Virus record (IMG/VR): IMGVR_UViG_3300049434_000028 | Coordinates: 1 to 64,000 of that record | Reading direction: 5' to 3' (one strand) | DNA length: 64,000 nucleotides | From: a virus | Shown here: one piece after another, positions 45,388-63,774 of the stretch | Numbering within the stretch: the stretch's first letter is position 1 | Layout of the letters: the number at the start of each line of letters is the position of its first letter | Position numbers and translations under genes: made by a program | Notes under the pieces: generated by a model | What the model was told of the DNA's origin: nothing | Seen by the model: the letters and a program-made list of their open reading frames with translations, nothing else | Database searches by the model: none

Positions 45388-45795
45388 TCAGGCGCGCTTG
45401 CGCGGGTACGCGCGGACGACGGGCTCGCCCTTACGCCAGGCAGCTTCCTTATGCAAGCCAGGCTGCTGACTCGCGAGCTTGCCAACGGCGGCCCTGGCGT
45501 CGGGGGACATGTCGTCACGGTGATGCAGGAAGGGCATGCCGGTCTCCTTGTGCACGCCCTCGTAGAGCGCGGCGGCCACACCCTGACGCCGATGCTCGGG
45601 ATCCACGGCAACGTACTCCACGCCGACGTGACCTTTCTGCTCGGGAGTCATGAACCTCTGGCTGCGGTCGAACCGCATCGTGCCGATAACGTCACCGGTC
45701 TCCGGGTGCCGAGCCGTGGCCAGCTCACCGCCCCAGGGGTGCGGGCCCTCCATCGCGACCTGCCACTGCCTACCAAGGTTGTCGGAAGCGCTCAC
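45388..45795 (-). CDS. GNAT-family acetyltransferase-like protein
   Basis: VEYVAVDPEHRRQGVAAALY (acetyl-CoA-binding motif A). Confidence 0.8.
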   Translation of the reverse strand: MSASDNLGRQWQVAMEGPHPWGGELATARHPETGDVIGTMRFDRSQRFMTPEQKGHVGVEYVAVDPEHRRQGVAAALYEGVHKETGMPFLHHRDDMSPDARAAVGKLASQQPGLHKEAAWRKGEPVVRAYPRKRA

Positions 45796-46103
45796 TTCCA
45801 GCCGAGCTTCCCGGTGAGGAACTCCATGCCGTGCTTCTTGGCCGCCGTCATCGTCTTGAACGGCGGGGGCGTGTACCGGATCTCCTTCGCGGTACCGTCC
45901 GGGCCCTGGTACCTGCCGATCATGTGGAACTCTCCTGGACCCTTACGCGCGACGGACACCTCGTGCGACTTGGGATCCCAGCCATTCGGACCCAGCCGCC
46001 GGTCGGCCCACTCCGGGCTGTCCTTGCCCCACATCGGCTCTTCCTGACGCCAATCGGTGATCTTCGGCTGGAACTGCTCGCCCAGGTGCTCGTCCGCGCT
46101 CAC
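45792..46103 (-). CDS. hypothetical protein
   Basis: 103 aa, GTGA-coupled at both ends. Confidence 0.75.
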   Translation of the reverse strand: MSADEHLGEQFQPKITDWRQEEPMWGKDSPEWADRRLGPNGWDPKSHEVSVARKGPGEFHMIGRYQGPDGTAKEIRYTPPPFKTMTAAKKHGMEFLTGKLGWK

Positions 46104-46234
46104 GGCGTGCTCGGGCTCTCAATCGCCCGCACGGGCGTCTTGGCCAGGCTGCGCTGGTACAGGACCATGCTGCGGTTGGCCTTGTACACGTCCGGGCCGA
46201 ACTGCTGAGGCTGGAGGTTGTCCGCTGCTGCCAT
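46100..46234 (-). CDS. 44-aa hypothetical protein (probably leaderless)
   Basis: MAAADNLQPQQFGPDVYK...; TACGCT -10 box 7 nt upstream of ATG; GTGA-coupled to the next gene. Confidence 0.65.
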   Translation of the reverse strand: MAAADNLQPQQFGPDVYKANRSMVLYQRSLAKTPVRAIESPSTP

Positions 46235-46323
46235 GCCGCTCAGCGTAACGGCGCGAAGGCCTGCGGTGGGAGAGTCCCGGCGTTACCCTGCAGGCACCGG
46301 ACCACTACGACACGGAGCACCCC

Positions 46324-46578
46324 ATGAGCCACTACTGCGATGGCAGCTGCACGCACGAGAGCGAGCGCTTCTATAGAGACGCCAACCGCGGGCTGAACAG
46401 CATCGGCATGCTGCTATGGATCGCCTTCGGACTGTTCTGCTTATGGACGGCATGCGTCACAGGGTCGATGCTCATCGCGCCCGAGCCGGGCGTCAACCCG
46501 ATCAGCTCGCTCATCATCACGCTGTTCTTCGCGTGCATGACCTGGGGCTCATTCCGTGTGGTACTCCGCAGGCGCTGA
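46324..46578 (+). CDS. two-TM membrane protein, opposite to the structural genes
   Basis: Own promoter CTGCGG-17-TACCCT (46261-46289), CGGACCA box and GGAG SD. Confidence 0.75.
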   Translation: MSHYCDGSCTHESERFYRDANRGLNSIGMLLWIAFGLFCLWTACVTGSMLIAPEPGVNPISSLIITLFFACMTWGSFRVVLRRR

Positions 46579-58727: not shown

Positions 58728-59714
58728 TCAGTTGGTCTCGCAGATCACGACGGAGTTGTCCGTAATCAGGCCAAATCCCCATATTGCATACCAGGCTAGG
58801 GCGTGCTCCCTGCCAAAATCGAGGATACCGCCATCTCTCAATTCGACAGGAAGCGAGATCGCGTGACCGAACGCATTGTCGCCCATGAAGATCGCCTGGT
58901 AGACATCGGACGCCGAGCCGCCAGCACCAACCAGCTTCTTGACCTGAGTGGTCTCGATGAAGACGACGTCCGCGATCCGGCCGATCTCGCCGAGCATGAA
59001 GTTGCCGGGGGCCGCGTACTTCGTGACCTCGATGAACTCGGGGTCGTCACGCAGCTTGCGCGACTGGTGCGGGTGCACGAACGCGACGTAGGTCTCGCCG
59101 AGACGCGGGACATTCTTGGTCGCGAGGGTCTCCACGGCGTCCTTGATGGACGAGACGCGGAGCACGTACGCACCGGTCATCGCTGCACGGTTGGCAGCAA
59201 CGGTGCCGTCGTCGTACGGCGAAGTCGGGGTGATCGCGCCGGTCGGGGGGAGGTAACCGAAGATGACCGACGTCGCCGTCAGGATCGTGTCGCGGGCCGA
59301 GCCGTCCAGGTACAGGGCCATGTTGCGGCCGAGCAGCCGGGAGGCCGACGCCATGACGTCGTCGAACGAAGCGTTGAGCAGCAGCTCGGAGACCGCGATT
59401 GCATAGCCCTGCTCCGCGACGGTGATCTGATACTGCGACGCCGACAGCGCGTTGGTCTGCATGCGCACACCCTCAACGAGCTGCGAGGCAGCGCCGAGGT
59501 TGTTGTACCGCATGAAGTTGACCGTGAGACCGGGCTGCACGCCCAGCTCGGTCTTCTTGACCGCGAACTGCTCGAATCGCAGGATCGGCATGCTCTGGAA
59601 CAAGATCTCCTTGCTCCAGATGCTCTGGATTGCCGCAGAGAGCTGCGCGTTCGCACCGGCATACGCGGTCGGACTCGCACTCAGGAACGGCGTACCGGTG
59701 ATGGCTGATGCCAC
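58728..59714 (-). CDS. major capsid protein (N4-gp56 family)
   Basis: WSKEILFQ.MP.LRFEQFA, L.EG, VHPHQ, GEIGR..V.FIET, DFGR...AWY.IWG; AAGGAGG SD preceded by a hairpin. Confidence 0.93.
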   Translation of the reverse strand: MASAITGTPFLSASPTAYAGANAQLSAAIQSIWSKEILFQSMPILRFEQFAVKKTELGVQPGLTVNFMRYNNLGAASQLVEGVRMQTNALSASQYQITVAEQGYAIAVSELLLNASFDDVMASASRLLGRNMALYLDGSARDTILTATSVIFGYLPPTGAITPTSPYDDGTVAANRAAMTGAYVLRVSSIKDAVETLATKNVPRLGETYVAFVHPHQSRKLRDDPEFIEVTKYAAPGNFMLGEIGRIADVVFIETTQVKKLVGAGGSASDVYQAIFMGDNAFGHAISLPVELRDGGILDFGREHALAWYAIWGFGLITDNSVVICETN

Positions 59715-60731: not shown

Positions 60732-61445
60732 TTACTCGCCTGCCACGCGCCGGGTAGAGCGGCCAGTGATGGAGGTCTTCAACGCCGCTCGCCACTCGGG
60801 GTACTTCTCGCCGAACGTGGACTTCTCCCCCGCGGCGGTCCTGGTGATGACGTAGCCGCCTTTGGACATCCGGAACGGTTTCGAGCAGCGCTGCATGTAG
60901 TCCAGCATCGCGCCCTGATGCGCCTGCGGATCCCCCCAGGCCGGAGTGACGAAATTGCTGACCGTTACCGGCGTCGCTGCCGCAGTCCCATGGGTAACGT
61001 TGATGACGTAGGAGTCGGACTCCACCGGGTCGCACACCTCAGCGGCGTAGAGCACGCCCGAGCCGTTGTCCCACCACCCATTGCACCGCGGGTCGACGAA
61101 CCATTCGAGCACCTCGTGCGAGAGCACGCTGGCCACCGAGAGGGTGTTGGTCAAGGCGTTGCCCCCGTTGTCCAGCACCGGCCCAGCGAAGACCCGGCCG
61201 TACTGCGTGCCGTCAGGATCCTCGGTGTGCCAGCCGAGCGCGCCTTCCTGGTCGCTGTCGTCGAACACGCCGAGCACCACCGCACTCGGCGGGATGTGCG
61301 CGGTATCGGGGTAGTAAATGACCGGGATCGGGAGCAGGCCCCACAACGGCGCGGCATGCAGGCGAAGCTGAGTCGCGCACGCACGAGTCATCGTTGCGAC
61401 GTCGTTGTTGCTGACCCGAGTGGACTTGTTGACGATAGCCAACAC
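60732..61445 (-). CDS. zincin-like metalloprotein (HExxE...DP, Phi-1/EXORDIUM-like pattern)
   Basis: ALGWH...LSHEVLEWFVDP..N.W...EVCDPVE...VSNFV.P.W. Confidence 0.65.
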   Translation of the reverse strand: MLAIVNKSTRVSNNDVATMTRACATQLRLHAAPLWGLLPIPVIYYPDTAHIPPSAVVLGVFDDSDQEGALGWHTEDPDGTQYGRVFAGPVLDNGGNALTNTLSVASVLSHEVLEWFVDPRCNGWWDNGSGVLYAAEVCDPVESDSYVINVTHGTAAATPVTVSNFVTPAWGDPQAHQGAMLDYMQRCSKPFRMSKGGYVITRTAAGEKSTFGEKYPEWRAALKTSITGRSTRRVAGE

Positions 61446-63169: not shown

Positions 63170-63559
63170 CTAGCTCCACTGCCCCTGAACGCCGCCGCGC
63201 TTGCCGAACTGCAGCCGGTGGAACACGTCAGGGTCGTGCGTGCCGTCGGCCTTGATCGGGTGCAGGTCCATGTAGGCGGTGTTGTCCACGCTCGGGGTGT
63301 GAAACGACTCCTCGCCCCCGCGGGTGAGCACACCGTCGTGGGCGACCTGCAGCTTGATCGCGGTCTGACGGAAGTTGTACCCGCTGTCCCGACGCTGCAC
63401 GAACGCCTCCCGCGCGGCCTTGCGGCTGGGGAAGTGCTCCAGGTCGTCGTGCGACGGCTCGGCGTAGCTGCTCCCGCCGTGCCAGCGCGCGGCGTAGCCC
63501 TTGGTCACCTTTGCCTCGGCAGGCGTCGGAGCGCGGCGGTCATTGAACAACTGCGGCAT
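63170..63559 (-). CDS. hypothetical protein (N-terminal FNDRR)
   Basis: 129 aa; W.GGSSY...LE.F.S...A...F..R. Confidence 0.75.
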   Translation of the reverse strand: MPQLFNDRRAPTPAEAKVTKGYAARWHGGSSYAEPSHDDLEHFPSRKAAREAFVQRRDSGYNFRQTAIKLQVAHDGVLTRGGEESFHTPSVDNTAYMDLHPIKADGTHDPDVFHRLQFGKRGGVQGQWS

Positions 63560-63561
63560 GG

Positions 63562-63774
63562 TCAGCCCCTTCCGTACATCTTCAGCGTGCGCGGGGTGAG
63601 CTTGGCAAGTTCCTCGCGCGGCCGGTCGTAGTTGGCCTTGCCGCAGTCCATGCAGTACGGCTCTCCACCGTCCCGCGAGATGTGCGTGGCGGGCTTGGCG
63701 CAGTAGTCGCAGGTCATCTCCTGCGGGCCAGCGGGAGCGGCAGTACGCGAGACGCGGCGATCGTTGAACTCCAT
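63562..63774 (-). CDS. small zinc-finger protein (N-terminal FNDRR)
   Basis: CDYC...C.DC. Confidence 0.7.
   Translation of the reverse strand: MEFNDRRVSRTAAPAGPQEMTCDYCAKPATHISRDGGEPYCMDCGKANYDRPREELAKLTPRTLKMYGRG

Follow-up and report, generated by a model that had tools for sequence, protein, structure and literature searches.

A modular N-terminal peptide common to unrelated small proteins of BRock-related phages as a possible address for virion loading

Why should three neighbouring proteins that resemble one another in nothing else begin with the same short peptide? The question is raised by genes A, B and C of the window, the 64,000-nucleotide stretch of DNA analysed here, which covers the opening 64 kb of one virus record, 102,797 bp long and of ~65 per cent GC. 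The original prediction took the common start for a candidate capsid-targeting signal, a modular address by which interchangeable effectors would be loaded into the head. Gene A (46100..46234, minus strand) encodes 44 aa from an ATG at 46234; its first 12 codons (46199..46234, minus strand) form a tag of the flavour M-A-A-A-D-N-L-x-x-x-Q-F, and the rest of the peptide is without known relative. Gene B (45792..46103, minus strand) encodes 103 aa from a GTG at 46103 that overlaps the stop codon of A, an orphan body standing behind an 11-residue tag (11 codons, 46071..46103, minus strand). Gene C (45388..45795, minus strand) encodes 135 aa from a GTG at 45795 that overlaps the stop codon of B, with an 11-residue tag (11 codons, 45763..45795, minus strand) and then a predicted truncated GNAT fold. 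Both overlaps take the form GTGA, and all three genes are coding by a codon model trained on the window genome (A scores 21.6), so that the predicted set of three coupled genes with a common N-terminal motif stands in its reading frames and its starts. The further suggestion of an operon with a –10 box held in part: the TANNNT-type hexamer TACGCT lies at 46242..46247 (minus strand), 7 nt before the ATG of A, and could mark a leaderless start, but the promoter scan finds no sigma-70-type site. No convincing terminator was found 3' of C in scans either, and a promoter and terminator belonging to the A-B-C cassette itself are not supported by these scans.

The bodies of the three proteins are unrelated, as predicted. 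With the first 14 residues removed, A, B and C gave no match to one another in BLASTP, and C matches the Pfam GNAT family (PF00583; E=4e-7, 30.6 bits against a cutoff of 20.7), which rules out that they are full-length paralogs, one of the circumstances that had been named as fatal to the idea. The product of gene B found only itself among 5.8 billion proteins and has no named neighbour in the Atlas. C aligns over ~94 residues with RimI-type and other GNATs at a Foldseek probability of 1.00, its closest structural match being a RimI-type N-terminal acetyltransferase, and it retains acetyl-CoA motif A (R/Q-x-x-G-x-G/A), with R70, G72 and A74 conserved in 115 sequences. Judged from model and alignment, C is a truncated GNAT with a domain shorter than the full fold, and a predicted acetyltransferase. 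The public record of this protein (P0164, 121 aa) begins at Met15 and so misses the tag; the GTG at 45795, backed by homologs, is probably the true start, and the tag thus serves to correct gene starts.

What the three proteins have in common can be described closely. When 35 tags are anchored on Q-[F/W], the consensus reads M-S-[H/A]-x-A-L-N-[G/P]-E-Q-F, in which the Q occupies residue 10 in 17 tags and is shifted by one residue, to 9 or 11, in another 13 (30/35 at 10±1); at the core, a hydrophobic residue is separated by a short spacer from an invariant Q-[F/W] at residues 10–11. In the 102,797-bp genome translated in all six frames, the motif as first proposed appears four times, three times as the N-termini of A, B and C and a fourth time inside the tape measure protein. 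A position matrix trained on 26 tags from other genomes only was run over 30,092 positions of the proteome of the window phage and ranked the tag of A first, a peptidase tag second and the tag of B eighth, with four of the eight best matches beginning at residues 1–5. AlphaFold models of C and of the peptidase, built on deep alignments, place the tag as coil ahead of the fold with middling to low confidence: residues 1–10 of C have a pLDDT of 57 and the first strand begins at residue 12, and residues 1–30 of the peptidase have a pLDDT of 62–68 with the domain starting at about residue 38. The tag is accordingly modelled as a flexible, unstructured N-terminal extension. Beyond the window, at 97156-97668 (minus strand), a 170-aa protein that the matrix did not pick starts M-S-R-A-E-Q-F, which may be a shortened tag.

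The same 11-residue N-terminal peptide occurs on hundreds of unrelated genes in uncultured relatives. Its bearers in IMG/VR and metagenome contigs are ParB-like proteins, mini-GNATs, peptidases, small proteins of 70–76 residues and ~10 unknown families, with up to six tagged genes in a cluster; like A, B and C, they are single-domain products (44–445 aa). A profile search of this and related genomes found the tag at the head of many unrelated proteins, with the best matches at protein starts, and the idea of a modular N-terminal tag on interchangeable proteins is borne out by at least three non-homologous folds in many related phages. Clustering of the tagged proteins without their first 14 residues left a ParB-like group, a GNAT group and ~10 singletons. 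The ParB_N match of the tagged ParB-like protein is weak and is supported by matches to mycobacteriophage proteins annotated as ParB. A profile of four tagged mini-GNATs matched 125 proteins, and the tag stands at the start of 94 of the 120 listed, several of the untagged ones having visibly mis-called starts (the public call of C included). In some near-complete genomes, no more than one or two tagged genes of the flavour searched for turned up, and no paper describing the Q-F tag was found in the literature.

The carriers are a clade of contractile-tailed phages with genomes of roughly 100 kb, allied to Streptomyces phage BRock; the source of the window is a 103-kb soil-type phage. Its closest isolated relatives belong to the BRock group of Streptomyces phages (capsid protein 73 per cent identical, sheath 43 per cent), and the 102,797-bp genome has no nucleotide-level match to deposited phages. 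All tagged contigs with a detectable capsid, portal or terL gene belong to the BRock-like lineage, with capsid proteins 69–77 per cent identical (51–68 per cent in two fragments). Neither C nor the peptidases nor one GNAT subfamily proved to have relatives among isolated phages, and a search by peptidase pattern found no prophage copies among 185,579 prokaryote genomes. The complete genomes of GiJojo and BRock have no peptidase and no convincing tags despite a common capsid, portal and scaffold lineage, and for that reason no tag-specific structural receptor gene stands out; when tagged contigs, partially sampled, were compared with GiJojo in search of such a gene, the peptidases alone differed.

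The virion genes of the window genome lie on the minus strand in the order terL, three HExxH peptidase paralogs, portal, capsid protein, fibre-like proteins and A-B-C, followed by the tail genes (tail terminator-like, sheath, tube, tape measure). The cassette, which has non-coding gaps on either side, counts as an insertion when set against GiJojo, whose fibre genes adjoin the tail terminator gene directly. Between the fibre gene and gene A, on the plus strand, an 84-aa ORF (46324-46578) of coding-like composition has two hydrophobic stretches and may be a small membrane-protein moron. Tagged genes recur in a few settings: the gap between terL and portal, in the window genome and in three GNAT-anchored loci; the gap between portal and capsid protein; and a few kb upstream of the sheath gene, in the window and in one other locus. 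In at least four contigs, a tagged cluster lies directly upstream of a queuine-tRNA-ribosyltransferase-like DNA-modification gene of PHROG 887 (L009 11331-12758; L051 11428-12873; L057-L059). The corresponding gene of the window genome, at 88682-90178, has no tagged genes nearby.

The three peptidase genes just downstream of terL lie beyond the window end in tandem, at 65648-68338 of the genome (locus L002 1648-4338, minus strand), with an ATGA overlap coupling the first of them to terL. They are full-length paralogs, 37–42 per cent identical, and each has L-x-G-x-Q-[F/W] within its first ten residues. Their family comprises 480 representative clusters in 1.84 billion proteins, with the tag at the start of at least 44 among the best 150 matches and with H141, E142, H145 and E168 invariant. 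Foldseek returned nothing significant for the peptidase model; a wider structural search recovered a zincin fold at middling Z scores, 7.9 for thermolysin and 6.0 for anthrax lethal factor. The flexible N-terminal region of the family also contains a near-invariant Q-G-T-L-F and P-R-G-Y-T-P-E-R, the former resembling a beta-clamp-binding motif of a type present in the peptidases only.

Tags vary from genome to genome in a manner that is informative. Their likeness is greater within a genome than within a protein family: a single GNAT subfamily whose bodies are 49–80 per cent identical has at least three different flavours, and unrelated co-resident proteins of one genome have a common flavour, which in the window genome is of the [S/A]-A-S-D-N-L type. 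Such a pattern across orthologous bodies suggests that the tag co-evolves with a partner.

Taken together, these features point most readily to the first 10–12 residues of A, B and C being a modular docking or ‘address’ peptide, not a relic of common descent, and most likely one for virion loading, a reading to which we would give a probability of roughly 0.45. The tag would bind some part of the particle under assembly, be it scaffold, portal or tail, so that the tagged mini-GNAT, the ParB-like nuclease, the HExxH peptidase and the proteins of unknown family would be built into virions, and the enzymes among them would be delivered with the DNA at the next infection. This reading draws on the position of several tagged genes within head and tail gene strings, on domain types like those of packaged proteins and on the precedents of T4 and P1; it is weakened by the lack of a recognizable prohead protease or T4-like component, by the several tagged clusters that lie beside a DNA-modification gene and by searches that turned up no virion proteome for the phage group.

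The precedents are alike and unlike in instructive ways. In T4, an extreme N-terminal peptide of about ten residues, the capsid targeting sequence (CTS), is common to the unrelated internal proteins IPI-III and Alt, among which are host-modifying enzymes. The CTS attaches to the scaffold core, and its last residues are the motif cut by the gp21 prohead protease. The Q-F tag is likewise a short peptide at the extreme N-terminus of unrelated proteins, modular and in principle transferable. The consensus of the 35 tags has no pattern in common with the T4 consensus, and no prohead protease or other T4-like core component was recognized by Pfam or PHROGs among the head genes of the window genome. 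The slot between portal and scaffold genes is the usual place of prohead proteases or minor head proteins. A 237-aa gene occupies it here (60732-61445, minus strand), with no homolog in GiJojo or the fetched relatives and no family match.

N-terminal packaging signals have been proven for the T4 internal proteins and for P1 DarB, in which the first 30 residues, a signal longer than 9 residues, send an anti-defence enzyme into the head (PMC9024508). The P1 signal differs from the Q-F tag in coming from one protein instead of a family of tags and in having been shown by experiment; the Dar set of P1 includes DdrB, with ParB-like and MPTase domains, which are domain types tagged here. Polyvalent proteins also have zincin MPTase and DdrB-type ParB domains as their hubs (Iyer, Burroughs, Anand, de Souza, and Aravind 2017; PMC5512222), and among them are known virion proteins, namely P1 DdrB and the N4 virion RNA polymerase (PMC5512222). 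The tagged genes resemble polyvalent proteins in that zincin MPTases, ParB-like proteins and small modifying enzymes are encoded beside virion genes; unlike in polyvalent proteins, every domain forms a small protein by itself and bears its own tag, and no MuF anchor domain turned up. A tag-less 681-aa protein of cluster C mycobacteriophages (~200 records), encoded a few genes ahead of the portal gene, is matched in adjoining parts by the tagged mini-GNAT and by the tagged ParB-like protein. The tagged set thus resembles a polyvalent toolkit split into separately labelled genes, and would correspond in ‘unbundled’ form to the polyvalent proteins that are packaged as a single chain in other phages. 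As represented by gp80 of Mycobacterium phage Essence (L056 5936-7978), the 681-aa protein contains ParB-like, mini-GNAT and further unassigned domains and is mostly annotated as hypothetical. The possibility that the tag is a relic of polyvalent inter-domain junctions was also considered and found no support: the Q-F motif is absent from the domain borders of Essence gp80 and of a 3478-aa protein that contains the peptidase domain.

A further likeness comes from Klebsiella podophages, for which one report (PMC13352976) describes a conserved N-terminal peptide that docks secondary receptor-binding proteins on a branching domain, on the outside of the tail. That peptide, as described there, is also a short conserved N-terminal plug for interchangeable proteins on one component, the cargo here being small enzymes and not fibres. 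Regarding possible components in the present phage, the N-terminal arm of the capsid protein (58728-59714, minus strand; residues ~36–55) contains L-F-Q-S-M-P-I-L-R-F-E-Q-F, kept in all relatives including the tag-less GiJojo. Its L-x-x-E-Q-F resembles the commonest tag flavour, which could be chance or could reflect a tag that mimics a capsid segment; no solved structure was found close enough to the capsid protein to place the L-R-F-E-Q-F segment.

The strongest competitor, which we consider unlikely without dismissing it, is that the tag is a short linear motif docking enzymes on one hub outside the virion (the host replisome, RNA polymerase, ribosome, a protease or a phage complex) and acts inside the infected cell. 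An unstructured, terminal tag is what clamp- or SSB-type client motifs look like, genome-specific flavours could track the host, several tagged clusters adjoin the DNA-modification gene and not virion genes, and the peptidases also have their invariant, clamp-binding-like Q-G-T-L-F. However, the Q-F tag fits no known bacterial hub motif. The beta-clamp-binding motif (Q-L-[S/D]-L-F type; Q then L-F at +3/+4) is absent from the tag, in which a hydrophobic residue precedes Q-F, so that the order of L and Q-F is reversed. Furthermore, a generic hub motif would not need a fixed distance from the N-terminus, and the many tagged genes that lie within head and tail strings, or are coupled to terL, suit packaged proteins better.

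It is less probable again, and in our judgement improbable, that the tag is a site for a co-encoded enzyme, either the HExxH peptidase cutting at Q|F or, as the more live option, the mini-GNAT acetylating the N-terminal Ser or Ala after removal of Met. Thermolysin-type enzymes prefer a bulky residue after the cut. The peptidases are the only genes present in all peptidase-anchored tagged contigs and missing from GiJojo, which together with their zincin fold suggested that they cut or bind the tag; the structural likeness of C to RimI-type N-terminal acetyltransferases, and Ser as residue 2 in 19 of the 35 tags, would suit the acetylation variant. Against this reading, three tagged genomes that are 93–100 per cent complete have no peptidase (positive controls matched in the same search), a peptidase lies within 10 kb in only 1 of 13 GNAT-anchored loci, the GNAT is itself tagged and is sometimes the sole tagged gene found, and there is no motif at the N-terminal border of the peptidase domain in the 3478-aa protein. 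The peptidase as obligatory reader or processor of the tag is ruled out as a general rule by the three near-complete genomes, and its rarity near GNAT loci and its absence from those genomes make it a frequent tag bearer, not an obligatory partner.

That the common start is functionless, a relic of tandem duplication or 5'-end gene conversion or else a nucleotide signal for coupled translation initiation, as the adjacency and coupling of A, B and C and the identical first eight bases of B and C might suggest, is scarcely credible given that the bodies differ in fold, that synonymous codons differ between the tags of each genome and that the same peptide is kept on many families, at N-termini only, in phages of 42 to 66 per cent GC. 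The differing synonymous sites rule out recent gene conversion of 5' ends, and the likeness of the tags is therefore maintained at the protein level.

The tag is thus an N-terminal, unstructured and modular peptide, kept by selection on the protein, whose flavour is specific to the genome and which does not depend on the peptidase. A binding partner, a place for the tagged proteins in the virion and their injection we infer by analogy and from the positions of the genes. A second tag can stand in its place: some orthologs of one peptidase subfamily start with the Q-F tag and others with an F-[N/H]-D-R-R tag; those with the F-N-D-R-R form occur in metagenomes (P0075, P0101, P0116 and P0120). 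In the window, two adjacent and unrelated genes, both coding by the codon model, start with tags of the F-N-D-R-R type: a 129-aa gene just upstream of the portal gene (63170..63559, minus strand) and a 70-aa gene with a Cys-rich body (63562..63774, minus strand). It is conceivable, and put forward more tentatively than virion loading of A, B and C, that a clade of roughly 100-kb soil phages loads a changing library of small enzymes for injection by means of the Q-F tag, in four genome-specific flavours, together with the F-N-D-R-R tag.

Proteins injected with phage DNA are among the first weapons against host defences, and to our knowledge they are known from few model phages, with packaging signals defined only for T4 and P1. 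If the tag is a loading signal, candidate injected effectors could be listed from genome sequence, phages related to BRock would offer a natural example of ‘unbundled’ polyvalent proteins, and foreign proteins could be packaged into phages of Actinobacteria by means of a compact 11-residue handle. Should a host hub or an enzyme prove to be the partner instead, the tag still defines a new client motif.
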